This document shows positions 95-29,025 of a stretch of DNA of 64,000 nt, one piece after another. The notes under the pieces were generated by a model. That model was not told the origin of the DNA and did not search any database. It saw only the letters and a program-made list of their open reading frames with translations. How positions within the stretch are numbered: the first letter of the stretch is position 1; every line of letters begins with the position of its first letter. The position numbers and the translations under genes are program-made. Origin of the DNA: Pseudomonadota bacterium (GTDB lineage Bacteria > Pseudomonadota > Gammaproteobacteria > Competibacterales > Competibacteraceae); NCBI GenBank assembly GCA_030917925.1, contig JAUPTV010000232.1:7082-71081 (forward strand). Reading direction: 5' to 3'.

Positions 95-576
95 CGCTGG
101 AACTGGATTTACAAATCGCGCTGGACCTGCCAAGCCTACCCAGCGCTGCCGATTTGCAGCGCTGGGTCGAAGCGGCATTGGCTGGCGCTGGCTATCAAAA
201 AGATGCTGAACTGACGATCCGCATTGTCAACGAGGCCGAAATCACTGCCCTGAATGAGACTTACCGTCACAAGCAGGGGCCGACCAATGTCCTGTCGTTC
301 CCCTTTGAAGCGCCGCCGGAAGTTGATAGCGCGTTGCTGGGTGATATCGTGATCTGCGCTCCGGTGGTGTTGCGGGAAGCGGTGATTCAGGACAAAACCC
401 CGGAAGCCCACTGGGCGCACCTGGTCGCGCATGGCGTTTTGCATCTGCTGGGCTATGATCATGATGAAACCCAGGCCGAAGCGATGGAGTCCCTGGAAAT
501 CCGGATTCTGACCGGCCTCGGCTATCCTGACCCCTATGGAGATGTTCAAGAACGACCGTCAATCACCCCGCCCTAA
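91..576 (+). CDS. ybeY: rRNA maturation endoribonuclease YbeY
   Basis: 161 aa with the zinc-binding motif [11 protein letters not shown] near the C-terminus. Its position between the phoH-like gene and corC fits. Confidence 0.92.
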
Positions 577-925
577 AGGGCGAAGCTTGTGAGAGCAAGC
601 TCCGGTTGACCAGCCTAAGCCCGCCTAACAGGGACGTTGAAAGGGGCTACGTTGCGGATAGGTTCAAGACTCACCCTGGGATGCTTCCTCAGTCCCAGGC
701 TCTGAAAGTCCCGGTTGCAGACACGCGATAGGGTAAGCACGAAACGGATTGGGACGAAATGCCGGTACGCAACATGGGCGAGGGGAGCGAGCCGCAAGGC
801 TCTGTCACCAGGCTCTTACGAGCGGACAGCCGGGAAAGACCGGCACCTAACAACGGCTGACCGTGCGTGGCACGATTCGCTATCCATCCCCGGTCTGAAG
901 GCCGGGGTCTCTCGCGGAAAATCTG

Positions 926-7434: not shown

Positions 7435-9237
7435 TTGAAACAGGATCTCATCCGCAATTTTTCCATTATCGCCCACATTGATCACGGCAAGTCGACCCTT
7501 GCTGATCGTTTCATCCAGATTTGCGGTGGCCTGAGCCAGCGGGAAATGTCCGAGCAAGTGCTGGACTCCATGGATCTCGAACGGGAGCGCGGCATTACCA
7601 TCAAGGCGCAGAGCGTCTCCCTGCGCTATCCGGCCCGCGATGGCCAGACCTACCAGTTCAACTTTATCGACACGCCCGGCCACGTTGATTTCTCCTACGA
7701 GGTCTCCCGCTCGCTGTCCGCCTGCGAAGGTGCGTTATTAGTCGTGGATGCCGCGCAGGGCGTCGAGGCGCAGAGCGTCGCCAACTGCTACACCGCCATG
7801 GAGCAGGGGCTGGAAGTCTTGCCGGTGCTCAACAAAATCGACTTGCCTTCCGCCGATCCGGAACGGGTGGCGAACGAGATCGGGGACATCATCGGCCTGG
7901 ACGCCAGTTACGCCTTGCAAGTCAGCGCCAAATCCGGCCTCGGCATTGACGAGTTGCTGGAAGCCATTGTCACGCATATCCCCCCGCCTAAAGGTCAGCC
8001 GGACGGACCACTGAAGGCGCTGATTATCGACTCCTGGTTCGATAACTTTGTCGGCGTCATTTCGCTGGTGCGGGTCGTTGATGGGCGCATTCTTCCCAAG
8101 CAGAAAATTCAGATCATGTCCACCGGTCGAGCCTTTCAGGTCGAATCGGTGGGCATCTTCACCCCTAAACGCACGGAGCAGCCCAGCCTGAACGCTGGCG
8201 AAGTCGGCTATGTCATTGCTGGCATCAAGGAAATCGACGGTGCGCCGGTAGGCGACACGTTGACCGGGGCAGATCGGCCGGCAACAGAGTCGTTGCCCGG
8301 TTTTCAAAAGGTGCAACCGCGAGTATTCGCCGGGCTGTTTCCGGTGGACTCGGATGATTTCGGCAATCTGCGCGAAGCCTTGCAGAAATTACGACTGAAC
8401 GACGCCTCCATGTTCTTCGAGCCGGAAACCTCACAGGCCATGGGCTTCGGGTTTCGCTGCGGCTTCCTGGGTCTGCTGCACATGGAGATCGTGCAGGAGC
8501 GCTTGGAGCGGGAATACAACCTGAATTTGATCAGCACCGCGCCGACGGTGATCTACGAGGTGCTGACTACTGGGGACGAGATCATCAAGATCGATAATCC
8601 CGCTAAATTGCCGCCGTCAAATGAAATCGCCGAGATTCGCGAACCGATTATTGTGGCGCATATTCTCACCCCGCAGGATTATCTGGGGTCCATCATCACC
8701 CTCTGTATTGAAAAGCGCGGCGTGCAGCGGGGTCTGCACTATGCGGGCGGGCAGGTGCAATTAAGCTTTGAATTGCCGTTGAGCGAAGTGGTGCTGGATT
8801 TCTTTGACCGGCTCAAATCGGTCAGCCGGGGTTATGCGTCGTTCGAATACAGTTTTGAACGCTTTCAAGCCGCGCCGCTGGTCAAGCTGGATGTGCTGAT
8901 CAATGGCGACAAGGTGGATTCGCTGGCGGTGATTGTGCACCGCGAGCAGGCGCAACGGCGCGGTCACGCCGCGGCGGTCAAGTTGAAAGAACTGATCCCC
9001 CGGCAAATGTTCGAGGTCGCCATTCAATCCGCGATTGGCAACCAGATCATCGCCCGCACGACGGTGAAAGCGTTGCGCAAGAACGTGCTGGCCAAATGCT
9101 ACGGCGGCGATGTGAGCCGCAAGCGCAAATTGCTGGAGAAACAGAAAGCCGGCAAGCGGCGCATGAAGCAGGTGGGCAAAGTGGAAATCCCGCAGGATGC
9201 GTTTCTCGCGGTGTTGCAGATGGATAAAAACTCATGA
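7435..9237 (+). CDS. lepA: translation elongation factor 4
   Basis: 600 aa with a TTG start. It has G1 AHIDHGKST and DTPGHVDF motifs, plus the characteristic LepA C-terminus. Confidence 0.95.
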
Positions 9238-12880: not shown

Positions 12881-15481
12881 ATGCGTATGGACAAACTGAC
12901 GAACAAGTTTCAACAGGCCCTGAGTGACGCCCAAAGTCTGGCGGTCGGCCGGGATCATCAATTCATCGAACCGACGCATGTCCTGGCGGCGCTCCTCGAT
13001 CAGGAAGGCGGCACGGTGCGGCCCCTGCTCGCTCAGGCCGATGTCAACCTGAAACTGCTGCGCTCGCAACTCAACGCAGCGCTGGACCGTCTGCCGCAAG
13101 TCACCGGGACCGGCGGCGATGTGCAAATCTCCAATGCCCTGTCCCGGTTGCTGAACCTGACCGACAAACTCGCCCAGCAACGCAAGGACGCCTACATCAG
13201 TTCCGAACTGTTCGTGCTGGCGGCGCTGGAGGACAAGGGCGAACTGGGCGCACTGCTGCAAAAAGCGGGCGTCACCAAAAGCCTGATTGAACGGGGTATC
13301 GACGCCCTGCGCGGCGGCCAGAAGGTTGACGACCAGAACGCCGAAGATCAGCGGCTGTCGTTAGATAAGTACACCATCGATCTCACCGAACGCGCCGAAC
13401 AGGGCAAGCTGGACCCGGTGATTGGCCGCGATGATGAAATTCGCCGCACGATTCAAGTCTTGCAACGGCGCACCAAGAATAATCCGGTCCTGATTGGCGA
13501 ACCCGGCGTGGGCAAAACCGCCATTGTCGAGGGTCTGGCCCAGCGCATCATCAATGGCGAAGTCCCGGAGGGTTTGAAAAGCAAGCGGGTCTTGGCGCTG
13601 GACATGGGTTCGTTGATCGCCGGTGCCAAGTTTCGCGGCGAATTCGAGGAACGGCTCAAGGCGGTGCTGAAAGACCTGTCCAAGCAGGAAGGGCAAATTA
13701 TCCTGTTCATCGATGAGCTGCACACCATGGTCGGCGCGGGCAAGGCCGAAGGCGCGATGGACGCCGGTAATATGCTCAAACCGGCGCTGGCGCGGGGCGA
13801 ACTGCACTGCATCGGCGCGACGACGCTGGATGAATACCGCAAGTATGTCGAAAAGGACGCGGCGCTGGAGCGGCGCTTTCAAAAAGTGCTGGTCAACGAG
13901 CCGAGCGTCGAGGACACCATCGCTATTCTGCGCGGGTTGAATGAGCGCTACGAAGTGCATCACGGCGTGGAAATTACTGACCCGGCTATCGTCGCCGCCG
14001 CGATACTGTCGCACCGCTATATCACTGACCGCAATTTACCCGATAAAGCTATCGATCTAGTGGATGAAGCGGGCAGTCGCATTCGTATGGAAATCGACTC
14101 CAAGCCGGAGGAAATGGACCGGCTGGAACGACGACTGATCCAGCTCAAGATCGAGCGCGAAGCGTTGAAAAAAGAGAGCGACGAAGCTTCCCGGAAACGG
14201 CTGGACCTGCTGGAGCAGGAAATCGCCAAGCTGGAGCGTGAGTTCCACGATCTGGAAGAAGTCTGGAAAGCCGAAAAACTGGCGTTGAACGGTTCGGCGC
14301 AGGTCAAGGAGGAACTGGAACGGGCGCGGCTGGAACTGGATACGGCACGGCGGGCGGGCGATCTGGCGCGAATGTCGGAATTAACCTATGGCCGGATTCC
14401 CGACCTGGATCGTCGGCTGGCGCAGGCGACGGCGGCGGAGACCGGTCAATTCAAACTGTTGCGTAACAAAGTGACCGAGGAAGAAATCGCCGAAGTGGTT
14501 TCCAAATGGACCGGCATTCCGGTCTCCAAAATGCTGGAAGGTGAGCGCGAGAAACTGTTGCGCATGGAGGACGCGATTGAGTTGCGGGTCGTCGGTCAGG
14601 ATGATGCGGTCAAGGCGGTCTGCGATGCCATTCGCCGCTCCCGCGCCGGATTGTCCGATCCCCGTCGGCCCAACGGCTCGTTCCTGTTCCTGGGTCCTAC
14701 CGGCGTGGGTAAAACCGAATTGTGCAAAGCGCTGGCGGCGTTCCTGTTCGATACCGAAGAAGCAATGATCCGTATCGACATGTCGGAATTCATGGAGAAG
14801 CACTCGGTCGCTCGAATGATTGGCGCACCGCCCGGCTATGTCGGTTATGAGGAAGGCGGTTATCTGACCGAAGCGGTGCGGCGGCGGCCCTACAGCGTGA
14901 TCCTGCTCGATGAGGTGGAAAAGGCGCATCACGACGTGTTCAACGTGCTGTTGCAAGTCCTGGATGATGGGCGATTGACTGATGGCCATGGGCGGACCGT
15001 CGATTTTCGTAACACCGTCATCGTGATGACCTCCAATCTGGGTTCGCAGATGATTCAGGAACTGGCCGCGCAGGATAATTACCCGCTAATGAAGAGCATG
15101 GTGATGGCACAGGTGGCCGATCATTTCCGTCCGGAGTTCATCAACCGTATTGATGAAGTCGTGGTTTTCCATCCGCTGGACCGGGGACAAATCCGGGCGA
15201 TTGCCGATATTCAGATCGGCTATTTGCGGCAGCGACTGGCAGACCGGCAGATGGCTCTCGACGTCAGTGAAGCGGCACTGGACTGGCTGGGAGAGGCCGG
15301 GTTTGATCCGGTCTATGGGGCGCGGCCGTTGAAACGGGCGATTCAGCAGGGGCTGGAAAATCCCCTGGCGCGGCGGATTCTGGCGGGTGAGTTCGGCCCC
15401 GACGATACGGTGGTAGTGGATGCCGGGGGCGACGGGTTGACATTTGGCAAGCGATCCCTGTCGCTGACCAAAGGGCGCTGA
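12881..15481 (+). CDS. clpB: ATP-dependent chaperone/disaggregase ClpB
   Basis: 866 aa with two AAA+ modules ([15 protein letters not shown]; [15 protein letters not shown]) and a long coiled-coil M-domain between them. Confidence 0.96.
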
Positions 15482-15614: not shown

Positions 15615-18578
15615 ATGGCCGAATTCACCTCCTCGCCCTCGCCTGCGGTAAAGCCAGGCCTGCGTATCATCTCCTCCCTGTCCTCCATCGCCCGACCGCT
15701 CACTGAGCGCATTCGGGAGACCGGCAGTTATTCGGTAGAACGTGCCAGTAGCACCACTCACTGTTATGAACTACGGCTGCAACCCGGCATTCTGTCCAGC
15801 GATGTACAGAATTTGCTCAACAGTCTCCGCCCCTTTCAGCCGCCGATCATCCCGGACGCCGATATTTCCGGCGACATCGTGGCCGAGCTACATCTGGGCG
15901 ATCATCACCGATTTCGGCACTGGGATCTGCAAATCCATAGTGATTCACCGATCCTGACTGACGCCCTCCGCAAGGGATTAAACAGTCTACAGTTCGACAC
16001 AAAAACCCTGACGGAACACCACGGTCCCCAGGATCGTAGCCAGATTCAATTTGGCGGCGCGTCAGCCCTGGTTCGCCATGCAATTCAATGGCTGGCTGAA
16101 CCATTGGGCGTTACCTTCGCCGAGAATAAGGAGTGGGATGAACCGGACAATGACATCTATATCTATATCAAGGATCCCTCAACCCAGCCGCTGCCCCAGC
16201 GTTTCCGTGTGCTCATCCAAACCGATGCCCTGGAGGCCGCCCAAGAATTGGCGCAGCAACTACGGGAAGATGGATTCAGCGACATCGCGATTGAAACCCT
16301 GACCGCAGAAGCCGCCATCGACGCCAAATTGTTGATCGAAATGGGGCCTTTCGCTAATACCCCGTTTGCCCACCGCTTACAGGCGCGGACGCAACAGTTC
16401 ATCGCCCAGCGCGGCGTTGATCCCCTTCGCTATCCGCTCGATGTGGAAAACCACAGTGAGTCCAGCACCCGCCAGGCTCAAGTCACGTTACCACTGGCCG
16501 CGTGCATCGACCGCCGTCGTCCGGCGTATGATGGCCCCGACCTGGAACGCTTCGAAATCGCCATTCGCACCGATCAGGCCGGCCATCCCACCATTCAGAA
16601 ACTGGCCATCACCCTCCGCGCTCTGGGCTTCAAAGCCGTGAAAATTTGTAGCTCCAGTCCGAACCCGGACAACGAGGATTTGCCGGACCTGGATGCAGAC
16701 GACGACACCTTCGATATCGACGACCTGGCCGACCTGCTGCAGGACGATGACGAGACCGATCAACTGGTCGGGTTCCGCATCATCTGGAATGCGGTACAGT
16801 CTCACCCGGAAGTCGCTGACCGCATCCGCCCGATCCTGCATCAGGCAATGACCACACTCCACGCTTTGCCACGTTATCCCTTGCGGGAAGAAGAGGGGGA
16901 CGAAGACCGGGATTCGGTCAAAATCAAGATTGATTTTCCCGTTGAGGGCATTCAAAGCGGCGAACGACCAGAATCCCTGTGGTACCGCCTGCGTGTGGAT
17001 ACCCCGAACCCGGAGCGCCTGGCCCCGCTCATGGATGAACTCCACACCTGGGGATTCCTCGGCTGCCAGATCATCCAGGAACGCCGACCCGGTGGCCTGG
17101 AACCCACGATTACTTATGGTGGCGCACCCCGGGAACTGATCGACCGCATCCGCGCCAGTGTGCAGGAACAGACGGGGCTTGACCCGGAACCCGCCAAGGA
17201 ATGGGGAAGTGAGGATCGGGATATCTGGGTGCATCTGCCGGATCGGGCGCAGCAACCCACCGTCAATCGGGAAGCGGTGGCGGTCGCGATGGATCACTGG
17301 TTCCCGGAGCAACCCCCGATCCGCGACTTGATCGAGATCACTGCCAGCACCGTCCGGGTTGGCGAAATCACTCTGGAGCGCCGGCCTGGCTCTCATCATG
17401 CAATGGCCCCGTCGCGGGAGGCTTTCGTCCACTACTGCCTCGATGGGAATACCGCAGAGACGTTGCTGCATATTGCCGCCAGTGTCGTCCTCGGTGAACC
17501 CTGCCTGCTGGAAGGGGAAACCAGCACCTCCAAAACCAGCGCTATCCTCTATCTGGCGGCACTGCTCAATCAGCCGGTGATCCGCATCAATCTGAATGGC
17601 CAAACCGATACTGGCGAACTGGTCGGGCGCTATGTGCCACGGGCGCTGGAAACGGATCTGCCAATACCCACGGAAGAATTGCGCGAACTCGAAGAACTGT
17701 TAGAGCCGGAAACCCGGTTGATTCTGAACCGCGCCGCCGGGGAGCAGCGCGCCCTGACTCGCGCTGAGGTGCAGCAGGTCATGGCCAATGAACGGATGCG
17801 CAGTCATCCCTGGCGCTGGCAGGACGGTCCGGTGATTGAGGCGATCCGGCAGGGCTGGTGGGTGATTTTGGACGAACTGAATCTGGCGGAACCGCAGATT
17901 CTGGAGCGGTTGAACTCGCTGCTGGAGCGCGAGCCGACACTGGTCCTGACGGAACACGACTACCGCGTTTACGGCAATGGCGGGGAACCGATTCATGCCC
18001 ACTTCCGCATTTTCGCCACGATGAACCCGGCGGAATACGCGGGCCGTTCCATGCTCAGCCCGGCGTATCGCAACCGCTGGCAGGGGTTCCGGCAGGCGGA
18101 TAAACCCAGTGAACAGGATTATGGGCAGATGATGCGGTTCCTGGCCTCTGGCGCACAACCAGCCACCTGCCTGTTGGGGCAGGGTTATCAGGGCGGTCAG
18201 GGTCAACCCTCGCACCCAGCGCTCAATATCCCGGAATGGACGACGCGGCTCCCCTCGCTGGTACGCTTCCATGTCGCCCTGGAACGCGCCAGTGGTCAGG
18301 GGGACGGGCCAGCCCGGTTGGGCGCACGGCGGCGGGAACGCTATATCTTCACCCGGCGGGATTTGCTCAGTGTCCTGGATTATCTGGCTCGTGCCCCGGT
18401 GGTGGGTCAGACTGATCCTGATCTCGCCCTGCGCACCGCGATTCATCGTTACTACCTGAGCCGCGTCACCACTGGGGAAGATCAGCAGACGGTGTTGCAA
18501 CTCCTGGAAGCGAATGGCTTTGCGCCAGCGGGATCGCCTGAGCGGCGTATCTCGCACCCCCTGCCCAGGTCCCGGTAG
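15615..18578 (+). CDS. large protein: uncharacterised repeat-containing N-terminal region (~630 aa) + C-terminal AAA_5 ATPase (midasin/CbbQ/NorQ/CobS clade)
   Basis: 987 aa. The Walker A-like motif is LLEGETSTSKTS (17514-17537). Walker B is WWVILDELNLAEPQILERLNSLLE (D-E at 17871-17876). FRIFATMNPAEYAGRSMLSPAYRNRW is the AAA_5 sensor/arginine region. Confidence 0.75.
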   Translation: MAEFTSSPSPAVKPGLRIISSLSSIARPLTERIRETGSYSVERASSTTHCYELRLQPGILSSDVQNLLNSLRPFQPPIIPDADISGDIVAELHLGDHHRFRHWDLQIHSDSPILTDALRKGLNSLQFDTKTLTEHHGPQDRSQIQFGGASALVRHAIQWLAEPLGVTFAENKEWDEPDNDIYIYIKDPSTQPLPQRFRVLIQTDALEAAQELAQQLREDGFSDIAIETLTAEAAIDAKLLIEMGPFANTPFAHRLQARTQQFIAQRGVDPLRYPLDVENHSESSTRQAQVTLPLAACIDRRRPAYDGPDLERFEIAIRTDQAGHPTIQKLAITLRALGFKAVKICSSSPNPDNEDLPDLDADDDTFDIDDLADLLQDDDETDQLVGFRIIWNAVQSHPEVADRIRPILHQAMTTLHALPRYPLREEEGDEDRDSVKIKIDFPVEGIQSGERPESLWYRLRVDTPNPERLAPLMDELHTWGFLGCQIIQERRPGGLEPTITYGGAPRELIDRIRASVQEQTGLDPEPAKEWGSEDRDIWVHLPDRAQQPTVNREAVAVAMDHWFPEQPPIRDLIEITASTVRVGEITLERRPGSHHAMAPSREAFVHYCLDGNTAETLLHIAASVVLGEPCLLEGETSTSKTSAILYLAALLNQPVIRINLNGQTDTGELVGRYVPRALETDLPIPTEELRELEELLEPETRLILNRAAGEQRALTRAEVQQVMANERMRSHPWRWQDGPVIEAIRQGWWVILDELNLAEPQILERLNSLLEREPTLVLTEHDYRVYGNGGEPIHAHFRIFATMNPAEYAGRSMLSPAYRNRWQGFRQADKPSEQDYGQMMRFLASGAQPATCLLGQGYQGGQGQPSHPALNIPEWTTRLPSLVRFHVALERASGQGDGPARLGARRRERYIFTRRDLLSVLDYLARAPVVGQTDPDLALRTAIHRYYLSRVTTGEDQQTVLQLLEANGFAPAGSPERRISHPLPRSR

Positions 18579-18603
18579 CCACGACTTATTGAGGAGGATG
18601 ATC

Positions 18604-20478
18604 ATGCCCACAATTTCTGAATACGTCCGGCAACTGAACGCACTGGCGGCGGGGCTTTGCTACGATGCACAAATCCAGGTGGAAGCAACCGCCAGCCATG
18701 GGTGGTGCTACGATCCGGTGCGCCGGGTGATCCAGGTCAGCGCGAAAGATTTAGAACAACAAGGCCCGGTGTATTGCGCGGGCATCCTCGCCCACGAAGC
18801 TGGCCATGCCCTGATCAGCCGCTATTCGCTGTTCACGTTGCCAGAGTCGCCGCCGGTGGTCGGCCATGGTGATTTAACCCACCTGGCGTTGCTCAAACTG
18901 CTGAATGCGCTTGAAGATCCCCGGGTTGAATACTGGATGGCCCAGCGCTATCCCGGTTGTCGCGGCTGGTTTGCCGAGGTGGATGGTGCGACCGCCCTGC
19001 AACCGACGCCGCTGCCCGATGGTCTCCCGGACTTCCTGCGCTTTGGTGCGGAATGCGCCCGGGAATGGGTGTTGGACTGGCAGGCGGCCCCAGAAGCCTT
19101 CGCGGTTCCTGCACGCATCGCCGAGACGCTGGACACCACCCGTGCCGCACGCCGCCGCTATGCCGAGGCGATGCTGCCGCCGGTGACGCTGGACGCCGCT
19201 GACCTCGATCCGGCTTTGTTAGTGACCTATCCCCACCATATCTGGTCCCGGCTCAATGCCCCGGTGCGTATCCGCGCCTGGCCGAGTCGCTGGGAACAGG
19301 GTATTCAACATTATGCTTGGCAAGCCGCTGAATTTGCGCACACGGCTATCGTCCCGACCGGGTTGCGGTGGCTGGAGCGCGATGTTCAGCGCTTGGCCAC
19401 CGGTCTGCAGGCGGATCGCAACGCCTGGCGACAGGCTTTGGCAATTCGTGATCAGCGTGATTCACCCGCCGCGACCGCCTTGGTGATGACTATGCTGGCG
19501 GCGCATCCGGAACCGGGTGTAGCGCCACCGACCGGGCAGCGACTGGCGGCGGATGTGCTGTATCTCATGCTGGCGAAACTATCAAAGGAAGAAGACGATT
19601 GGGGGATAACCCCACCGCCTGCACCGCCGCCTCAAGAATTCCGGTACCAACCACGCCCGCGTGGCGCTCCGCCGCTGGAATCTGTCGATGCCTATGAGCA
19701 GGCGCGACTGCGGGTTGCCTCACAGATTGATGCCTTCACTGCCCAGGTGGAGCAGATTCTCCAGCCGTGTCGCCGGTTGCATGACCAGGCAGGTTATCCG
19801 AGCGGCTATCGTCTGGACCTGCGCCGGGTGATGGGCTTTGAAGCCGATGCTCGTTGTTACCATCAACTGTGGCGACGCAAAAATATTCCGGATCGGCGTG
19901 ATGCGGCGGTATTCCTGCTGGTTGATCTGTCCGGTTCGATGCAAGGTCCCAAGAGCGAGGCAGCGCTGCTAGGGACGGTGTTGGTGGTCGAGACCCTGCA
20001 TCGGCTGGGCGTCCCGCTGGCGGTTGCCGGCTTTCAGGATGAGCTGATTCTATTTCTGGATTTTGCGGATACGCTGGATGCGGAACGGCAACAGGCGCTG
20101 GCGTCGCTGCCGCTGGAAGTCAGTGGAACCCGCCCCGGTGGACATAACCGCGAGCGGTATAACGATGATGGTCCGTGCCTGCTGGCCGCTGCGGAACGGT
20201 TACTGGCGCAGCCTGCCAGTGATCATATTCTGGTGGCGATCAGCGATGGCCGACCGGAGGGCCGTCGCTCGAATGCACAGGATTTACATGATGCGATTGC
20301 CCGGTTGCGCGATGAACCGGGTTTAAGCCTGATCGGGGTGGGGCTGGGACCGAACACGGATCATGTGACCGAGTATTACCCTGATGCTGTGGCGGATGTG
20401 CCAATTCCTGAATTCGCGGAGCGCATTGGCGAGTTGCTGGAGCGAGTGCTGGTGGGCGGAATGGCGGAAGTGGGTTAG
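18604..20478 (+). CDS. vWA (CobT/NorD/CbbO-type) protein with N-terminal HExxH metallopeptidase-like motif
   Basis: The ATG at 18604 follows GAGGAGG (18591-18597). The motif is AGILAHEAGHALISRY (HExxH at 18793-18807), followed by LNALEDPRVE. The C-terminal vWA has MIDAS VDLSGSM (19924-19938), NDDG and ISDGRPEG motifs. Confidence 0.75.
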   Translation: MPTISEYVRQLNALAAGLCYDAQIQVEATASHGWCYDPVRRVIQVSAKDLEQQGPVYCAGILAHEAGHALISRYSLFTLPESPPVVGHGDLTHLALLKLLNALEDPRVEYWMAQRYPGCRGWFAEVDGATALQPTPLPDGLPDFLRFGAECAREWVLDWQAAPEAFAVPARIAETLDTTRAARRRYAEAMLPPVTLDAADLDPALLVTYPHHIWSRLNAPVRIRAWPSRWEQGIQHYAWQAAEFAHTAIVPTGLRWLERDVQRLATGLQADRNAWRQALAIRDQRDSPAATALVMTMLAAHPEPGVAPPTGQRLAADVLYLMLAKLSKEEDDWGITPPPAPPPQEFRYQPRPRGAPPLESVDAYEQARLRVASQIDAFTAQVEQILQPCRRLHDQAGYPSGYRLDLRRVMGFEADARCYHQLWRRKNIPDRRDAAVFLLVDLSGSMQGPKSEAALLGTVLVVETLHRLGVPLAVAGFQDELILFLDFADTLDAERQQALASLPLEVSGTRPGGHNRERYNDDGPCLLAAAERLLAQPASDHILVAISDGRPEGRRSNAQDLHDAIARLRDEPGLSLIGVGLGPNTDHVTEYYPDAVADVPIPEFAERIGELLERVLVGGMAEVG

Positions 20479-20513
20479 GCAACATTTTCAAAGTCGAAAG
20501 GAGCAATGTTCTT

Positions 20514-21494
20514 ATGGCGACTCATCCCCAGTTAATCTACAAGTACCGCATCGACACGGCCAGCATGACGGCTGAATATCCACCCCGCTGGCGGCATCCC
20601 AACAAGCAGCGAGTTTATGAAATAGCCTGTCCGCCAGGCAGTAGGCACCACGGCCAGATTCAGTTATCGCGCTGGTGTGATTTTCCGTTGCCGGGTACGC
20701 TCCCGAATACGCCGTCTGCTGTGTTCGAGATCAGCGAGAGCCTCTTTCAATACGAACTGGCCTTACCCGGAACTACGGCGTGGTATTTGAATTTTGCTCA
20801 TCATGACCTGTTTGTCGCTTACGGCAGTCCCTTATTAGCGCAAGATGAGTTACAAGTGGCCGAGCATCCGACCCTGGGATCGCTACGCGAGGCGTTGCAG
20901 GCGCGAAGCATTACGCCGCTGACCGTGGAAAACGGCAAGCCGACGCCCATGTTGATCAAAGGGATTGAACGACGGTGCTGTATTGCGACGGACGCCAATG
21001 CGGAACAGTTACGACCGCATGGACTGTATGGCAACCACTTTGCCCGCGCTTCGCTGGAGGCCGTGGAACGTGCAGTGACCCGGATTGATCCCCCGACCCG
21101 AACGAATCTGATTGCTATCGAAGCGCCGCCCGGCGGACAGGGCGCTTATACGATAGAGCAGATTTTGTACATTCTCAGCACAGCCTACAGCGGTTTTGCG
21201 GCCGCCAAGGTGGAAGCCGACGCGGATACGACGACCACGATCCATACAGGTTTCTGGGGTTGCGGCGCTTATGGCGGCAACCGTGTGCTGATGACGTTAC
21301 TGCAATTGTTGGCGGTCAACCTGGCCCAAGCGCAGCATTTGATTTTTCATAGCTTTGATGAGGCTGGGTCAAAAGTATGCCGAGAAGCGCAGACCCGGTT
21401 TAGCGAAGCGTTCGCGGGAGTGACGCAATTGTCGGCGATCATTGAGCGCATTCAGGCCATGAACTTTCAATGGGGCGTCAGCGACGGCAACTGA
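20514..21494 (+). CDS. poly(ADP-ribose) glycohydrolase (canonical PARG)-like macrodomain protein, divergent active-site loop
   Basis: 326 aa with SD AAGGAG at 20498-20503. NFAHHDLFVAYGSPLLAQDELQVAEHPTL parallels the PARG FANRFLGGGV..VQEEIRF..PEL motif. TGFWGCGAYGGNRVLMTLLQLLA parallels [23 protein letters not shown]. The human PARG sequence is from memory. Confidence 0.65.
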   Translation: MATHPQLIYKYRIDTASMTAEYPPRWRHPNKQRVYEIACPPGSRHHGQIQLSRWCDFPLPGTLPNTPSAVFEISESLFQYELALPGTTAWYLNFAHHDLFVAYGSPLLAQDELQVAEHPTLGSLREALQARSITPLTVENGKPTPMLIKGIERRCCIATDANAEQLRPHGLYGNHFARASLEAVERAVTRIDPPTRTNLIAIEAPPGGQGAYTIEQILYILSTAYSGFAAAKVEADADTTTTIHTGFWGCGAYGGNRVLMTLLQLLAVNLAQAQHLIFHSFDEAGSKVCREAQTRFSEAFAGVTQLSAIIERIQAMNFQWGVSDGN

Positions 21495-21544: not shown

Positions 21545-21967
21545 GTGGAAAAAGCGGATGATCTGCGTCATTATTGTTCAGAGCGGTTTCAGTCAGCGAG
21601 GTTTTGGCAATGCTTTGCTGATGTCCCCATTGATTTGCGCTTTGATCTGGTGTTACTGATGGGGAACGGGTTGGGGATTTTCGGCGATGAGCAGTCAACG
21701 CTGACCGGGTTACGTCAGATTCATGGCTTGCTGAATCCGGGCGGGGTTTTGGTGATGGAAACGGGCAATCCGTTTGCTCGCGGTGATTTTTTGGTTTCCC
21801 GGTTCACAATTAGCTACCGTAATCAGATCGATGGACCGTTCCCTTGGGGATATGCTTCGCGTTGGTGGTTGGAGCGAAATTTAGCGGTAACTGGTTATCA
21901 GTTAGATCAGGTCGTTCGGTCGTCCGCGCCAGGTGGATTTTTTATCGCGTGTGCATTGAAAGTGTGA
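21545..21967 (+). pseudogene. 5'-truncated class I SAM-dependent methyltransferase remnant
   Basis: A 140-aa GTG ORF retains the post-motif-I part (FDLVLLMGNGLGIF...LLNPGGVLVMETGNP). It lacks the N-terminal GxGxG SAM-binding motif. Only about 50 bp separate it from the upstream gene. Confidence 0.45.
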
Positions 21968-22054
21968 TTGATCGGCTAAATTCAACCGGCTAATCCCATT
22001 TTTACCAGAAATAAAGGTAGAAATGGTTAACCTAAAAATAAAGAGGATTTAAAA

Positions 22055-24175
22055 ATGACTGTGCAAGAACTATTGAACCTGATCTCTGGGGAAGAAGGCC
22101 AATTTAGAGGAAAGAAGTTTGACTTACCAAAGCATGATTTAGAAGGTGGTGTAGAATCAGGAGGACTATTTCTCCATCAAGCAGAATGCATTGAGAGTTT
22201 CTTTCAAGCTTGGCCATTAAATGGAATTATACATCTTCCAACTGGAGCAGGAAAAACTCGGGTAGCTTTGGAGATAATAAAACGGTGTAATAAAGAAAAC
22301 CCAAATACCAAGTTTATTTGGGCGACATACCCTGTTAGTCTTATCAGGCAAGGGATGGCAAGGTTAGTTGAAATTTCACCTAGTCTTTTTAGAGATTCTT
22401 CACTTCAAAGCTTTATTTGGGCTAATGGTAGAACATTGAAAAATTCTTTAAATCAAGCTGATATAGTTTTTTTGATGAGAGATCACTTGGGTATATTTCT
22501 TGAAAAATCTATAAAAAATAAAAACTCGCTTCGGAAATTTTTGAGTAATACTGAAAATCGTCTCGTTATTATTTATGATGAGTGCCATCAAATGGGTGCA
22601 GAATTATTGCGTGAAAGGTGGACAAAGTTTCAAGAAAATATTCCGCAAAATAACGTTTCAATTATTGGATTAAGTGCAACACCTTTACCAACTACTGGGG
22701 AAGGCAAAGATTTTTTAAAAAAAGTTTTTCCTGTTAAGCAGCAATGTAAAGGTATTTACCCACATCTTGAAACTTTAATTTATTATAGTGCAAATAATAA
22801 AGATTTAGTTGATAAAGAAATTTTGTGTCCGATCAATCTGTCGTTACAAAAAACAGGAATATTTGATATTCCGAAAGAAATTCTTGTTGATGTGATATGT
22901 AATTCTAGAATTATCTCTTCATTTCCGGAAAACTCTAGTAGAGATCGGTTGGAAGAATTTGCTAGACAATTTAATCGCGACGTAATGAGTTCAAATAAGG
23001 TTTTAGACTTTTTAGGTAAAACAATCGGAGATCATCTTTCTATACTTGGTAAAACTCTGGTATTTGTGCCTACTATTAATGCAGCAAATTATTTAACCAG
23101 CGTTTTTCGTAACCATCCCAAATTAGGTACAGGAAAAGTTTCAGTTGTGCATAGTAAAATAGGTGAAATGGAAGAGATAAATCAAAATGACAATAATCAG
23201 GATCCCTTTAATCCCTATAGGCAAATTGAAGCGTTCCAAAACTATGGAGATAAGCCCTGTGTAATGGTAAATGTAGGGATGCTTACAACGGGGTTTGATG
23301 ATCCAAAAATTAGAACAATTGTTCTTGCGCGGCTAACGTTATCCAAAAATTTGTTTTGGCAAATGATTGGCAGAGGTACTCGTGGAATTTCGGTAAAGGG
23401 TACCTCAGATGTATTTGTGATTGATCCCATAAGATTGACCGATAAATTTAGCGTTATGGAAGGATATTTTTATGGCATTAAAGCTCCTAATATTAATGAA
23501 ATTGCAAGTAAAGTAGTTGGTAATGAAATTTTTTCACAAGAAAGTTATCCAACTATTGATTCACTACCAATTCCAGGATCTGATGATAGCCGAATGCACA
23601 TAGATCAAACCGTTAAAGAAGATGTTATTCATGCACTAAAGACCTTCCTTGGAGGGGATAATGCTATCGGAGGAGATAATGTTATTTCAGTAGATGATTT
23701 TGTAAAGATTGTGAAGGAAACACAAGTCACATACGATGATAAAAGTGCAAGGTGGCAACTATCCAAAGTAGTTGATCAACAACAGTTGCCAGATTCAAAT
23801 CATTTATCTTTTTGCAACCATTTGATTAAAAATGCAGAAAACCATTTGAAGGCAGACTTATCTTGGTTAAACAACCATCTGCCGCTAGTATTTAATGAAG
23901 GAGGGATCAAGAGTTTTTTTGCGAGAGTTAAATTTATTGAAGCACATGCTGTACTTACATCATCGGATTATGATGAAAAAATAACGCAATTAATGATGAG
24001 CAGTTTGCCTGAAAAAAAGGCAGAAAATGAAATTCACGTTAATAAATCATCAAGTAACCAAAAACCTGAAAACATTCCACAATTAGTGAAGATTAAAAAT
24101 GAATCAATGATTAATGCGATGTTTTTTTCACATGATGGCATGTATTATATTAGGAATAGATCGACAGCAAGGTAA
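22055..24175 (+). CDS. SF2 (ResIII/DEAD-like) helicase; the 3' end runs into WD40 blade 1 and then frameshifts
   Basis: 706 aa with motif I LPTGAGKTRVA, motif II IIYDECHQ, motif III GLSATP and motif VI QMIGRGTRG. The last residues INAMFFSHDGMYYI are WD40-like. Confidence 0.8.
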   Translation: MTVQELLNLISGEEGQFRGKKFDLPKHDLEGGVESGGLFLHQAECIESFFQAWPLNGIIHLPTGAGKTRVALEIIKRCNKENPNTKFIWATYPVSLIRQGMARLVEISPSLFRDSSLQSFIWANGRTLKNSLNQADIVFLMRDHLGIFLEKSIKNKNSLRKFLSNTENRLVIIYDECHQMGAELLRERWTKFQENIPQNNVSIIGLSATPLPTTGEGKDFLKKVFPVKQQCKGIYPHLETLIYYSANNKDLVDKEILCPINLSLQKTGIFDIPKEILVDVICNSRIISSFPENSSRDRLEEFARQFNRDVMSSNKVLDFLGKTIGDHLSILGKTLVFVPTINAANYLTSVFRNHPKLGTGKVSVVHSKIGEMEEINQNDNNQDPFNPYRQIEAFQNYGDKPCVMVNVGMLTTGFDDPKIRTIVLARLTLSKNLFWQMIGRGTRGISVKGTSDVFVIDPIRLTDKFSVMEGYFYGIKAPNINEIASKVVGNEIFSQESYPTIDSLPIPGSDDSRMHIDQTVKEDVIHALKTFLGGDNAIGGDNVISVDDFVKIVKETQVTYDDKSARWQLSKVVDQQQLPDSNHLSFCNHLIKNAENHLKADLSWLNNHLPLVFNEGGIKSFFARVKFIEAHAVLTSSDYDEKITQLMMSSLPEKKAENEIHVNKSSSNQKPENIPQLVKIKNESMINAMFFSHDGMYYIRNRSTAR

Positions 24176-24953
24176 CATTAAGCTTTGGGATGCATTTGAT
24201 GGAAAAGAGATAAGAACATTTAAACATGGTGATTGGGTAAGTTCAGCATCTATTTCAATGGATAATCGTTATCTTTTATCTGTAGGTGATGATGACGTAA
24301 AAATTTGGATGGTTAATGATGGATGCGAATACCGAACCTTTAAAGGAGGATATGAAGAAGCGATGCTTTCGCCAAACAATTTTAATGTACTCATGGGAAA
24401 TCGCAATTTATTTGCATTGCACAGAGTAGATAATAAAGAAAAATTAAGGGTTTTTCCTGTTACTGAACCAAATAGAAGTAATAAAAGAAGAGTCGATACT
24501 ATAGCATTTTCACCAGATGGTTGCTATGCGTTAGCAGGGCAGAACTATGGGACTCTCAGATTATGGGAAATGGATAGTGGGAAAGAATTAGGTGTACTTA
24601 GACCTAAGCGTTACTGTTCAGTGCACACTGTAGTATTCTCATTCAACGGAAATTATGCATTATCGAGCCATAGCCCTGATGTAATACTTTGGGACATTAA
24701 AAATCTCCAAGAATTGCAAATTTTTAGAGGTCATTCTGATCTAGTCCGTGCTGTGGCTTTCTCAAAAGATGGTAACTATATATTATCGGGGGGTGATGAT
24801 AAAACTCTCAGGCTCTGGACAGTGAAAAATGGTCAAGAATTAAAAATTTTTACTGATGACTCTGATATTTTAGCAGTGGCTTTTTCACAAGATGGCCGTT
24901 ATGTGATTTCAGCAAGTCGGGATAACACAATAAGACGGTGGCCTGTCAAGTGA
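24114..24953 (+). CDS. WD40 beta-propeller (continuation of the helicase in the +1 frame; about 7 blades when joined)
   Basis: Repeats include GNIKLWD, DDDVKIWMV, GTLRLWEMDSGKEL, GHSDLVRAVAFSKDGNYILSGGDDKTLRLWTV and SASRDNTIRRW. There is no SD before the ATG at 24114, and 62 nt overlap the helicase ORF. Confidence 0.75.
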   Translation: MRCFFHMMACIILGIDRQQGNIKLWDAFDGKEIRTFKHGDWVSSASISMDNRYLLSVGDDDVKIWMVNDGCEYRTFKGGYEEAMLSPNNFNVLMGNRNLFALHRVDNKEKLRVFPVTEPNRSNKRRVDTIAFSPDGCYALAGQNYGTLRLWEMDSGKELGVLRPKRYCSVHTVVFSFNGNYALSSHSPDVILWDIKNLQELQIFRGHSDLVRAVAFSKDGNYILSGGDDKTLRLWTVKNGQELKIFTDDSDILAVAFSQDGRYVISASRDNTIRRWPVK

Positions 24954-25035
24954 TGAGAATCTTAATAAAGCCTGCGGCTACTACCTAAAGCCTGATCACC
25001 TGAAAAGTCGGTCATCGTGTACTATTATAGCTCCC

Positions 25036-25412
25036 ATGGAAGCTATTAAATTTGATGAAAGCTCTCAAGAGAACTTTAAAATAAACCCGCTACCGATCCC
25101 GCCCCCCGTTCGACGCGCCATCGAGAAACTGGGCGCTGACATAGCCCTGGCCCGCCGACGCCGACGCATCTCCCAAGCGTCACTGGCCGAGCGCATGGGC
25201 GCGTCCGTATCAACCGTGAAGCGGTTGGAGAACGGCGATTTGCGAGTACCATTCACTTCATTGCCCGGGCGCTCCACGTCTTCGGCGAAATTGAACGACT
25301 CGCGAACCTTCTGGATACGGCGGAGGATGCCATTGGCCTCGCGCTCATGGATGACCAACTCCCGCAGCGTATCCGCACCCGCAAGTCAACGCCTGACGCG
25401 GGGGCGCTGTAA
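25036..25412 (+). pseudogene. XRE-family HTH (HipB-like antitoxin type), frameshifted
   Basis: The HTH ISQASLAERMGASVSTVKRLENGD is in the track frame. From about 25250 the +1 frame reads HFIARALHVFGEIERLANLLDTAEDAIGLALMDDQLPQRIRTRKSTPDAGAL* (stop 25410-25412). This is the conserved C-terminus of this family (recall). Confidence 0.6.
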
Positions 25413-25457
25413 AGTCGGTACATTGAAGCGTGCAGCAACACCTAACAGCGGGCTCGG

Positions 25458-26462
25458 CTACCCTTCTCGCTGATAACGCTCCGCCAGTTTTCGCACCCGT
25501 TCCGCGAATTCCTCACGCAACGCCACCGGTTCCAGCACCTCCACCTGTTCGCCGAACCCCAGCAGCCACCAACGCAATTGCAAGGTATCGCGCACCATCG
25601 CCGTCAACCGGTACCGACCATCGGACTGTTGTTCCAAAACCTGATCCTCGGCCAATGCCGATTCACTCAAATGAAAGGCCACGTTGCCATCGATTAGCGC
25701 CGTGAGCGGAATCCACTCGCCCCTGATCATATCGAAGGCCCCGCTCTGGATATAAGCATCCAGATCGAAGTCCGGCGGCGTCCGGCGCGGCGTATTCAGC
25801 AACTCAGCGCTCTCAAACCGATGCAAAACCAACTGAATGACGTTGTCGTATTCCTTCAAACAACACACCAGATAAATCACCTGATCCCGCACCACCAGCC
25901 CCAGCGGATTGATCTCATAACCCTTGGTCCCCCCGGTTCCGAAACGCGGCCGGTAATGGGCGTAGAATCGCTGCCCCTGCAACAAAGCATCGTAAATCAC
26001 CGCCAACACCTCGTCCCGAATCGCCGGAGCCTGCAAGCGTTGCCCCCGTGATAGAACCCGGATTTGATCCAGCCAGCCGCTCAATTCCGGCCCACTCGCG
26101 CCCTCCAGCACCGCGTCAGCATTCTCTAGATAAGGATTGAGAAACTTCAGCACGGAGGGCGGCAACAGTCGGCGCAAGTGCAGATCCACAAATTTCAGGG
26201 TCAGGGCTGTGTGCGGATCCAGTCCGGGAATGTTCAATACTCCGGCGACTTTCAGCCAACTCCAGCCAAATTGATTCTGGTTGTCCGAACACCGCAACGG
26301 AAAATAGGACTCCAATTTGATCAAATCCCGCTGGATGGTGCGTAGCGTGACCTTGTAGCCGTGATCGACCAGTTTTCGGCGCATGTCCTGAACGGTGATC
26401 CACGAGGGTTCACGAGGAATCATCCGCAACATCGTCAGATAACGAATCGTCGTGTCCATCAA
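25458..26462 (-). CDS. wHTH-WYL-WCX transcriptional regulator (BrxR/CapW-like)
   Basis: 334 aa. The N-terminus IRYLTMLRMIPREP..ITVQDMRRKLVDHGYKVTLRTIQRDLIKLE is the typical wHTH. The central region YHLVVRDQVIYLVCCL is WYL-like. Confidence 0.75.
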   Translation of the reverse strand: MMDTTIRYLTMLRMIPREPSWITVQDMRRKLVDHGYKVTLRTIQRDLIKLESYFPLRCSDNQNQFGWSWLKVAGVLNIPGLDPHTALTLKFVDLHLRRLLPPSVLKFLNPYLENADAVLEGASGPELSGWLDQIRVLSRGQRLQAPAIRDEVLAVIYDALLQGQRFYAHYRPRFGTGGTKGYEINPLGLVVRDQVIYLVCCLKEYDNVIQLVLHRFESAELLNTPRRTPPDFDLDAYIQSGAFDMIRGEWIPLTALIDGNVAFHLSESALAEDQVLEQQSDGRYRLTAMVRDTLQLRWWLLGFGEQVEVLEPVALREEFAERVRKLAERYQREG

Positions 26463-26856: not shown

Positions 26857-28890
<2,034 letters not shown>

Positions 28891-29025
28891 GTTCTAAAAT
28901 GATTAGAACACAGCGCCGTGCATACTGCATAGACTTGACACTGACATCATTTAAACTGGCCTCACTCCTGCCCTGCTCTCAAAGGGTGAGGGTTTTTACA
29001 GCTTCTTAAAGCGAGGTGGAATCTC

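Follow-up and report, generated by a model that had tools for sequence, protein, structure and literature searches.

The window, by which we mean the whole 64,000-nucleotide stretch analyzed here, carries a helicase-WD40 gene split into two open reading frames on the forward strand. ORF1 (22055..24175, + strand) encodes 706 residues and ends at a premature stop that follows a frameshift. Its product comprises an SF2/ResIII helicase core (approximately residues 40-470, bases 22172-23464), a disordered tether, a family-specific middle domain (approximately residues 515-647, bases 23597-23995), a second tether, and the first strands of blade 1 of a predicted WD40 propeller. ORF2 (24114..24953, + strand) is read in the +1 frame and encodes 279 residues; its coding content, from about 24150 on, supplies the remainder of blade 1 and blades 2-7. 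The AT-rich leader (21968..22054, + strand), with which the low-GC islet starts, places a Shine-Dalgarno-like AAGAGGA ahead of the ATG. No LexA-type box (CTGT-N8-ACAG) occurs in this leader, and a scan for promoters and terminators returned matches at chance frequency only, promoter-like matches in the leader included.

Three damaged or adjoining genes complete the locus. Upstream lies the remnant of a class I SAM-dependent methyltransferase gene (21545..21967, + strand), which lacks the first 86 residues including SAM-binding motif I (LDVGCGVG). Downstream are an XRE-family HTH gene (25036..25473, + strand; Pfam HTH_31 and HTH_3 at residues 32-72) and, convergent with it, a gene encoding an HTH-WYL-WCX regulator (25458..26462, - strand; Pfam WYL and WCX). 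Within the window, no HsdM or HsdS gene adjoins the helicase gene.

The preliminary description of this DNA had joined the two overlapping, differently framed ORFs into one protein of about 960 residues interrupted by a frameshift, and both points hold. The joined product, reading FSHDGMYY and then LGIDRQQGNIKLWD across the junction, is 965 residues long and aligns end to end with the intact orthologues P0002 (970 residues, 81-82% identity) and P0003 (972 residues, 77-79% identity). ORF2 aligns with the C-termini of both, and a further fragment, P0004, reads through the junction in frame. DNA alignment to the related genomes L001 and L002 reveals exactly one extra base in the window, located in the TATTATATTA tract (24143..24152, + strand) and modeled as an A at 24149. 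The frameshift sequence is identical in L030 (SRR24011151), L031 (ERR15657118), and L032 (SRR24011150); across these three and the window, four assemblies that stem from two or more studies, sequence identity is 99.9% and no gap differences occur. Because the same indels recur in three further assemblies, sequencing error is ruled out and the frameshift is real. Programmed frameshifting or slippage was also considered and rejected: the shift falls between HDGMYY and LGID in the TATTATATTA tract, where the orthologues are in frame, and a T7 run 20 nt upstream is not the shift position, so we read the change as a plain one-base insertion. The insertion is genuine and fixed across four independent assemblies. 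It separates the propeller from the motor, and the remaining 706-residue product has the basic, tail-less architecture of its family.

Closer examination of the joined protein substantiates the ResIII/DEAD-like helicase core proposed earlier. Pfam ResIII matches residues 40-210 (7.8e-18, 65.4 bits against a cut-off of 22.5), and Pfam DEAD matches as well (2.7e-11, 43.9 bits against a cut-off of 26). The protein has the features that define SF2 helicases, namely two RecA-like domains and motifs I (GxGKT), II (DExH), III (SAT), and VI (QxxGRxxR), which in ORF1 read PTGAGKT, YDECH, SATP, and QMIGRGTRG. When the invariant positions of a 60-sequence family alignment (motif I, YDECH, SATP, QMIGRGxRG) were scored against ORF1 itself, all were found to be kept. 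A profile search of solved structures places RadD (5.8e-16) and HsdR (3.9e-12) nearest; the gene encodes a stand-alone SF2 motor with a ResIII-type ATPase core closest to these two enzymes.

The seven WD40 blades previously described are likewise recovered, both by Pfam WD40 (3.4e-35, 119 bits, within ORF2) and by an AlphaFold model of an orthologue (pLDDT 82), in which residues 680-968 form 28 strands, or seven blades of four strands each. Foldseek searches with this model retrieve seven-blade WD40 structures at target-normalized TM-scores (TMt) of 0.83-0.86, the seven-blade matches including 5yzv, 7big, and WDR5 (target-normalized TM about 0.8). As modeled, the C-terminal part is a seven-blade WD40 propeller. 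A search for the origin of this domain gave only generic relatives, at no more than 43% identity.

The intervening region, formerly taken to be a motif-free linker of about 200 residues, has to be redrawn. In P0002, disordered tethers at residues 472-497 and 648-675 flank a confidently folded domain at approximately 500-645 (pLDDT 85-96; a model of the middle domain has pLDDT 84). The domain is kept across the family, with F531 and W604 present in at least 90% of sequences in the 60-sequence alignment. Its fold has no significant match in the PDB (the best, DdmD, has an E value of 0.76). When the domain alone served as a single-sequence query against 1.8 billion representative proteins, only 3 matched, and its sequence signal is therefore weak. 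The middle region is thus predicted to be a folded domain specific to this helicase family and unmatched among solved structures. Neither Pfam nor the structure model reveals an effector domain of any kind (nuclease, TIR, protease, or other) in the helicase-WD40 protein. No STAND family occurs among the best 25 of its 44 Pfam matches, the ATPase present being the SF2 helicase. Assignment to the SftH/YprA helicases was rejected since the protein has no DUF1998 domain.

The protein belongs to an unnamed family that combines the helicase core, the family-specific folded domain, and an interchangeable tail. Membership was defined by homology extending past the helicase core and through the middle domain, as is found here. 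Homologues number more than 1,500; among the 120 matches listed, all have E values below 1e-86, lengths span 531-972 residues, and the tails are WD40, TerB, SAP, SCP2, or zinc-ribbon, with C-terminal tails exchanged between relatives. For distant homologues (33-42% identity), the alignment typically spans 84-93% of a 695-residue query; in a subset at 38-42% identity it spans just 58-80%. The WD40-tailed form is a small clade in Candidatus Competibacteraceae.

When representative genomes from 185,579 species were scanned by a pattern-limited search, 23 loci came up, and 16 of these are clear members of the family. The family was not found among 50,697 phage records, and 72,556 plasmid records gave only one weak match and no real relative. 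Relatives from Woeseiaceae, Chromatiales, and Gemmatimonadales share 74-85% protein identity across phyla and no neighboring gene; for chromosomal members from Woeseiaceae and Gemmatimonadales, protein identity is 85% and DNA homology is limited to the ORF. A conserved 40-nt element upstream of the Woeseiaceae and Gemmatimonadales homologues, considered as a regulatory site, proved to be a coding N-terminal extension (MRSIFDIVRSWF). No neighbor is conserved across the family; the other members have neither a conserved methyltransferase or XRE neighbor nor AAA_5 or VWA neighbors.

Base composition bears out the earlier view that the gene sits on foreign, AT-rich DNA. GC content is 33-36% over 22001-25000 versus 53-63% in the adjacent flanks and approximately 58% over the whole window. 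The islet, at about 34% GC, is essentially coextensive with the helicase-WD40 gene, and in L001 and L002 the gene has a GC fraction of 0.35 versus 0.55-0.59 in its flanks. The data show that the helicase-WD40 gene was acquired horizontally. The islet shows no mobile-element edges: flanking direct or inverted repeats, tRNA, transposase, and integrase are all absent there.

It had also been proposed that the gene is carried alone, and on this point the comparison with L001 leads to a different picture. Measured against L001, the helicase-WD40 gene of the window has a synonymous divergence (dS) of 0.21 and the methyltransferase one of 0.18; the values for the AAA_5, VWA, and WYL genes are 0.92-1.0. 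A block of about 90% nucleotide identity between the window and a related genome spans approximately 21590 to 25600, and identity drops from about 90% to 68-80% within the WYL gene. Judged from these sequence comparisons, the methyltransferase, helicase-WD40, and XRE genes have one recent history in common, from which the flanks and the WYL gene are excluded. The XRE gene was transferred together with the helicase gene. The WYL gene, whose dS of about 1.0 resembles that of the flanks, has a separate history; it is a resident neighbor and not demonstrably a member of the module. The XRE and WYL regulators had been read as a hint of defense: they are indeed adjacent, but with the WYL gene resident and the XRE gene frameshifted, the argument built on them is weak.

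The two companions of the helicase gene are themselves damaged. The methyltransferase remnant corresponds to residues 87-226 of intact genes of 226 and 227 residues in L001 and L002 (86% amino acid identity). Those intact enzymes match Pfam Methyltransf_25, 23, and 12; with motif I at residue 62 and no (D/N/S)PP(Y/F/W) motif, they do not resemble DNA amino-methyltransferases. The XRE gene has lost one base between 25248 and 25249, which shifts its reading frame, and its protein matches an intact 125-residue orthologue over the first 73 residues only. In a 625-column DNA alignment of this region with L001, mean column identity is 94% and the window has one single-base gap. Given the truncated methyltransferase and the XRE deletion alongside the helicase frameshift, the cassette is decaying. 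The three genes are being lost, and the window copy is a split gene within a decaying three-gene cassette, with no intact module.

The dN/dS of the helicase-WD40 gene is 0.40-0.44 versus 0.15-0.23 in flanking genes; between the two intact copies it is 0.43. By part, the ratio is 0.24-0.31 in the helicase core, 0.61-0.77 in the middle domain, and 0.40-0.53 in the WD40 region.

The genomic contexts of relatives provide a mixed indication of function. By raw count, about 5 of 17 non-redundant loci have type I restriction-modification, DISARM, type IIG, Gabija, or DarTG systems no more than 7 kb away. One homologue (L022) is followed 12 nt downstream by full-length DISARM DrmD and DrmMI (E = 0). 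Another (L021) accompanies a complete set of HsdM, HsdS, and HsdR. L036 lies near a type IIG enzyme, HNH, Gabija, and DarTG, and L005-L007 near HsdM, a REase, and a helicase with Pfam AAA_11/AAA_12/MTES_1575. In a scan of the neighbor proteins as one pool, four match the PADLOC Mokosh MkoA model. Conversely, four of the seven distant-homologue contexts inspected individually are nondescript or housekeeping-like, with glutamine synthetase and ammonium transporter genes, a pga operon, or a TonB receptor. The survey of homologues and their neighborhoods recommended in the preliminary description thus gave a divided answer. Its proposal of a single-protein defense or conflict factor gains from the loci beside defense systems, the ORF-sized transfer, the swapped tails, and the dN/dS values, and loses from the missing effector, the nondescript contexts, matches to named families that cover only part of the helicase core in PADLOC and NCBIfam, and the lack of real relatives in the phage and plasmid records. 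A defense or conflict role for the family is plausible but unproven.

The explanation we favor, to which we assign about an even chance as a whole, is an acquired motor gene with an exchangeable tail that serves as a single-gene factor against mobile DNA or phages. The motor would bind nucleic acid and translocate using ATP, while the tail (WD40 here; TerB, SAP, or zinc ribbon in relatives) may act as an adaptor that senses or recruits a protein partner. A family of this kind would operate as a single-gene factor in conflict with mobile DNA or phages, either by remodeling or dislodging the complexes bound to foreign nucleic acid or by passing the nucleic acid to a separately encoded partner; the hand-over is proposed because the protein has no nuclease of its own. 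A bolder version is more tentative: an unrecognized, nuclease-less, single-gene anti-phage or anti-plasmid system, in which a RadD/HsdR-like translocase is steered by its exchangeable tail, spreads between phyla as a bare ORF, and, in its WD40 form, recognizes a phage or host protein and loads the motor onto foreign nucleic acid.

Other readings of the same motor have to be weighed against this single-gene conflict factor. The protein could be an accessory RadD-type helicase of DNA repair or replication restart, its tail tethering a repair partner and its gene controlled by the damage-sensing WYL regulator. WYL regulators such as PafBC and DriD do govern DNA-damage regulons, RadD is the best match both in solved structures and in NCBIfam (4e-13), JGI annotates several homologues as 'DNA repair protein RadD', and several homologues occupy ordinary chromosomal contexts with GC equal to that of the host. 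We nonetheless regard a repair function as unlikely. Against the RadD/YejH equivalog NF053632 the protein scores 48.5 bits where the cut-off is 720, and residues 403-457 (motif V-VI) alone align. The distribution is patchy, as the 23 loci and 16 clear members attest, high cross-phylum identity comes without shared synteny, no repair genes were seen nearby, the upstream region has no LexA-type box, and the history of the WYL gene differs from that of the helicase gene. That the gene is instead a selfish or neutral passenger, spreading by recombination without host benefit and decaying because dispensable, would fit a gene-sized transfer with homology stopping at ORF boundaries, damage to three adjacent genes that is fixed in the population, and the raised dN/dS. 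Yet dN/dS stays well under 1 even between intact copies, catalytic motifs are invariant across the 60 aligned sequences, and, with neither transposase nor integrase nor terminal repeats found at the islet, the gene is left without a means of spreading selfishly; we hold this reading to be rather improbable.

Two further possibilities draw on the neighboring genes, and both seem to us very doubtful. In all three related genomes, an AAA_5 protein (about 1000 residues) and a VWA protein (about 630 residues) are encoded upstream of the helicase-WD40 gene, which might then be the third, propeller-bearing component of a variant MoxR-vWA-beta-propeller ternary system. The published third component indeed combines a variable N-terminus with a C-terminal propeller, but it also has TPR repeats and a membrane segment, the operon is conserved, and the vWA protein ends in a propeller of its own with about four blades (Kaur, Burroughs, Iyer and Aravind 2020, PMC7159879). 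Here the only Pfam match of the VWA protein is CobT_C, and no propeller was found in it. The genes that separate the pair from the helicase gene vary by genome (PARG-like in the window; HicB, UPF0175, and DUF3368 in L002), and the AAA_5, VWA, and PARG neighbors have no PADLOC match. Moreover, the pair and the helicase gene have separate histories, as GC (65% versus 35%) and dS (about 0.95 versus 0.21) differ, and the pair accompanies no other family member. A restriction-modification-like cassette, in which the methyltransferase marks self, the ResIII motor acts on unmarked DNA, and the XRE protein is the controller, would explain the common recent transfer of the three genes (dS 0.18-0.21; 94% mean column identity around XRE) and a weak match of the methyltransferase to the PADLOC mad2 model (8e-9). 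The methyltransferase, however, is a class I enzyme of the small-molecule or RNA type rather than a DNA methyltransferase, a 67% identical paralogue occurs elsewhere in L001, other family members conserve neither a methyltransferase nor an XRE neighbor, and the helicase has no nuclease domain.

Should the family prove to act in defense, it would extend the known repertoire by a helicase-only system that consists of one gene, has no effector, and carries modular sensor tails; it would also be a clean case of an immune motor whose sensing end is exchanged by domain swapping. In any event, the family is an unusually clear example of ORF-sized transfer across phyla, with Gammaproteobacteria and Gemmatimonadota proteins 74-85% identical and DNA homology ending at the start and stop codons. 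The locus in the window should be annotated as one pseudogene, not two genes, and offers a snapshot of accessory-gene turnover, a fixed frameshift allele in a Competibacteraceae population.

Comparison with known systems places the family near several and within none. RadD (YejH), an E. coli SF2 DNA-repair helicase (PDB 6jde, 7r7j), is the closest by solved structure and NCBIfam and shares the ResIII-type RecA1/RecA2 core, a similar motif V-VI region, a C-terminal accessory region, and a stand-alone gene. The family's C-terminal domain, however, is unrelated to that of RadD and has no PDB fold match, and the family is patchy and horizontally mobile with swappable tails, whereas RadD is none of these. 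HsdR (PDB 3h1t) has a similar ResIII motor (profile E value 3.9e-12; EcoAI-family model 1.5e-13), and some family members adjoin restriction-modification systems; in contrast to HsdR, the family has neither an N-terminal PD-(D/E)xK nuclease nor conserved HsdM/HsdS partners, and scores against HsdR models fall far below their cut-offs (TIGR00348, 26.3 bits against 284.55; NF046051, 50.1 bits against 550).

Like DISARM DrmA/DrmD, Druantia DruE, Hachiman HamB, and Dnd-Pbe PbeA, the family has a large SF2 motor, which at some loci lies in a defense-island context. PADLOC PbeA models match its first RecA domain at about 1e-14, and one homologue abuts DISARM DrmD and DrmMI. These likenesses are partial matches to the core, and the family differs from such helicase-centered systems in having no DUF1998, partner genes, or nuclease. 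A protein was to count as part of a PADLOC system only if it matched one of the system's proteins over nearly the full length and the partner genes were present. In PADLOC-DB v2, the check proposed in the preliminary description, the best matches are PbeA (8.8e-15, residues 38-211 only) and fragments of REase_I and Cas3, with no system protein matched near full length; the matches reach only generic helicase cores, in keeping with the earlier failure to place the protein in a named defense family. The MoxR-vWA-beta-propeller systems offer a likeness in the AAA_5/VWA pair beside a propeller protein with a variable N-terminal part, and on VWA propeller, intervening genes, GC, and dS the locus lies outside them. 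The propeller itself, which is C-terminal like a sensor or adaptor domain, resembles the seven-blade WD40 domain of Thermomonospora PkwA (PDB 5yzv; about 30% identity, TMt 0.83-0.86). STAND NTPase-WD40 proteins are recognized by a NACHT, NB-ARC, or other STAND module N-terminal to the repeats, and the best 25 of 44 Pfam matches of the present protein include none; unlike STAND-WD40 and kinase-WD40 proteins, it fuses its propeller to an SF2 helicase rather than to a STAND NTPase or kinase.

The helicase-WD40 gene lies on foreign DNA, as the preliminary description held: a block of 33-36% GC at 22001-25000 stands out from a window mean of ~58%, and at finer scale this block (~22000 to 25000) is the gene itself. 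It contains two plus-strand reading frames in different frames, ORF1 (22055-24175, 706 aa) and ORF2 (24114-24953, 279 aa). Joined across the TATTATATTA tract at 24143-24152, where ...FSHDGMYY runs on into LGIDRQQGNIKLWD..., they encode a 965-aa product with Pfam matches to ResIII (residues 40-210, 7.8e-18), DEAD (2.7e-11) and WD40 (3.4e-35, together with many propeller families). Given such long reading frames in DNA of 34% GC and these E-values, the gene is far beyond chance. Intact full-length orthologues of the joined protein, P0002 (970 aa, 81-82% identity) and P0003 (972 aa, 77-79%), are encoded in two related genomes, and the orthologue fragment P0004 reads through the ORF1/ORF2 junction in frame.

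The frameshift suspected between the two reading frames is real, since DNA alignment places one extra base in the window relative to P0002 and P0003. Three further assemblies of the same sequence (runs SRR24011151, SRR24011150 and ERR15657118) match the window at 99.9% identity with zero gaps and encode the 706-aa ORF1 identically; the insertion is therefore fixed in the population, and read error is ruled out. Programmed slippage is unlikely, because T7, the sole homopolymer run, precedes residues that are still correctly in frame and the orthologues lack any shift. The copy in the window is thus a fixed allele, pseudogenised or truncated. ORF1 keeps all family-invariant helicase motifs and resembles the tail-less family members, so that motor activity may be retained.

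An AlphaFold model of P0002 (61 aligned sequences, pLDDT 82) comprises a two-lobed helicase core (residues 1-470), a compact, well-predicted middle domain (~500-645; two helices, a beta-hairpin and a helical bundle) and a C-terminal propeller of 28 beta-strands, that is, seven blades of four strands each, which Foldseek matches to the seven-blade WD40 structures 5yzv, 7big and WDR5 with target-normalised TM-scores of ~0.8. Disordered tethers span residues 472-497 and 648-675. The preliminary description of the pair as a single ~960-aa protein, a helicase fused to seven WD40 blades, is confirmed by the joined product, its Pfam matches, the orthologues and this model, with refinements. One of these concerns the segment taken there for a ~200-aa linker with no recognisable motif, which is instead predicted to be a real domain, conserved across the family and with no solved relative: its fold is confidently predicted, and modelled alone (pLDDT 84) it finds no significant match in the PDB (best E 0.76). 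Its sequence signal is weak, with three matches among 1.8 billion representative proteins when searched alone. It nevertheless falls within the family-wide homology, as BLASTP alignments typically cover 84-93% of residues 1-695 (58-80% for a subset of closer homologues), and F531 and W604 hardly vary in the family.

ClpB of the window (12881-15481) shares 89-94% identity with its counterparts in Candidatus Competibacter, Contendobacter and other metagenome-assembled genomes of Competibacteraceae, which identifies the host as a gammaproteobacterium of that group; metagenome assemblies are the source of all the closest ClpB relatives. The surroundings are chromosomal: clpB, thiC (26857-28851) with an ordinary TPP riboswitch upstream (28800-28895, minus strand), and an FAD oxidase. 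Elsewhere in the window, at 558-793 (+) between ybeY (91-576) and a corC-like gene (926-1795), lies a full-length HEARO RNA (RF02033, 117.7 bits), the class to which IscB omega-RNA belongs. No HNH or IscB reading frame lies beside it, and it has the look of an orphan guide-RNA-like element within a housekeeping operon.

The window and the contigs of the two related genomes, L001 and L002, share the order AAA_5 (~1000 aa), VWA (~630 aa), variable small genes, methyltransferase and helicase-WD40. In the window, AAA_5 (987 aa), VWA/CobT_C (654 aa) and a PARG-like macro-domain gene (326 aa) lie in a row at 15615-21494 (+), with zero PADLOC matches among their products; the AAA_5 and VWA pair is kept in L001 and L002, and the PARG-like gene, found only in the window, occupies the variable slot that holds HicB, UPF0175 and DUF3368 genes in L002. 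An XRE gene (25036-25473, +) and then a WYL gene on the opposite strand (25458-26462) follow the helicase gene in the window and L001; the L002 contig stops just past the helicase gene, short of both.

These genes have two histories. Between the window and L001, dS is 0.98 for AAA_5, 0.92 for VWA and 1.0 for WYL, as against 0.21 for helicase-WD40 and 0.18 for the methyltransferase (21545-21967, +); mean column identity around the XRE gene is 94%, and a sliding comparison delimits a block of ~90% identity at ~21590-25600. Between L001 and L002, dS is ~0.15-0.23 in all genes. The dS contrast indicates that Competibacteraceae lineages, long separated by then, exchanged the genes for methyltransferase, helicase-WD40 and XRE, and that WYL and the AAA_5/VWA pair are resident; of the two regulators originally placed beside the module, only XRE shares its transfer history. 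In L001, paralogous class I methyltransferase genes (96-776 and 8059-8739, 67% amino acid identity) flank the AAA_5/VWA pair and could have served as recombination anchors for exchange of the region. The helicase gene has 35% GC in all three genomes, which points to an unsampled low-GC donor. Its nearest non-WD40 relatives are only ~40% identical, and its WD40 part has generic relatives only.

This discordance in GC and dS also bears on whether helicase-WD40 works with the adjacent AAA_5/VWA pair as a beta-propeller ternary system, a reading that fails, the locus lying outside the published criteria for such systems. A restriction-modification-like set of methyltransferase, motor and XRE fails likewise: motifs typical of DNA methyltransferases are absent from the methyltransferase, which also has a resident paralogue. 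Two neighbours of the helicase gene are damaged in the window as well. The methyltransferase has lost its first 86 residues, SAM motif I included, and the XRE gene carries, in all four assemblies, a one-base deletion between 25248 and 25249 relative to L001, which after residue 73 swaps the C-terminal part of the 125-aa protein for unrelated sequence.

A homologue search at E <= 0.001 yielded 1,592 proteins, generic helicases possibly among them. The best 120 of these (all E < 1e-86, 531-972 aa) have no tail or end in TerB, SAP, SCP2, zinc ribbon or WD40, the last confined to the Competibacteraceae clade. A pattern-limited scan covering representative genomes from 185,579 species gave 23 loci, 16 of them clear family members, mainly in metagenome-assembled genomes of Woeseiaceae, Chromatiales, Gemmatimonadota and Myxococcota. 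A search of 50,697 phage records turned up no relatives, and one of 72,556 plasmid records a single weak match. Outside the WD40 clade, gene GC equals host GC. Family members on complete Woeseiaceae and Gemmatimonadales chromosomes show 85% protein identity and 80% DNA identity. Seven loci of Woeseiaceae, Chromatiales and Gemmatimonadota, two phyla, show 74-96% identity and no common neighbours except one gene in the closely related Gemmatimonadota loci L008 and L014, and nucleotide homology between cross-phylum loci is confined to the reading frame, from beginning to end. Judged from these sequences, the gene has moved between these lineages by horizontal transfer as a gene-sized unit. Many Woeseiaceae, Chromatiales and Gemmatimonadales homologues also share an N-terminal peptide, MRSIFDIVRSWF (L004 7825-7864; L008 2344-2383; L014 9734-9773), followed by a basic low-complexity stretch; the WD40 clade lacks the peptide.

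The survey of homologue distribution and neighbourhoods proposed in the preliminary description gave a divided answer. Known defence systems lie near 5 of 17 non-redundant family loci (a raw count), the remaining contexts are unremarkable, and no neighbour is conserved across the family. At L022 (17-9053), full-length DISARM DrmD and DrmMI genes (E = 0) start 12 nt after the family member and may be co-transcribed with it. A complete type I restriction-modification system follows the member at L021; the TerB-tailed member at L036 has a type IIG enzyme and an HNH gene on one side, Gabija and DarTG on the other; and the Nannocystaceae locus (L005-L007) carries HsdM, a gene with a restriction-endonuclease fold and a large AAA_11/AAA_12/MTES_1575 helicase. 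Four neighbour proteins, not individually identified, matched the Mokosh MkoA model in a pooled scan of family contexts. At the fifth locus, L019, there is a second ResIII enzyme, similar to type IV restriction enzymes.

Two further kinds of neighbour were observed. Among six contexts of distant homologues, four have a Ser/Thr protein kinase <8 kb from the helicase (L003 14941-17853; L004 1-1845; L005 10394-12700; L033 12649-13995). In the pooled scan three neighbour proteins, presumably the kinases in question, matched PADLOC PD-T4-6 kinase models (1e-19 to 1e-68), which could reflect a general resemblance among kinases, or chance in genomes rich in them. A 617-aa CBS-domain protein (L036 6123-7976) ends 25 nt before the TerB-tailed helicase, and a 432-aa protein with a weak CBS match (L005 12734-14032) lies near the Nannocystaceae homologue, making a CBS-domain protein a possible recurrent partner.

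Defence context, cross-phylum mobility, tail swapping and a raised dN/dS (0.40-0.44 for helicase-WD40 versus 0.15-0.23 for its flanks) together form the pattern of a conflict gene. Because no effector domain is present and the neighbourhood count has no background rate, we give the family a roughly even chance of being one; a defence role for helicase-WD40, as first suggested, is plausible but unproven. A RadD-like repair protein would agree with the similarity of the core and with some homologue contexts, but the distribution and mobility of the family do not fit, and no LexA box was found upstream of the gene. The protein contains no nuclease or DUF1998 domain and, among the best 25 of its 44 Pfam matches, no STAND module, and the PADLOC search, proposed earlier as a check, matched generic helicase cores only. 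Helicase-WD40 falls an order of magnitude short of all curated family models; architecturally it is a new variant in an uncharacterised but real helicase family, and its closest characterised relatives are RadD and the type I HsdR motors.
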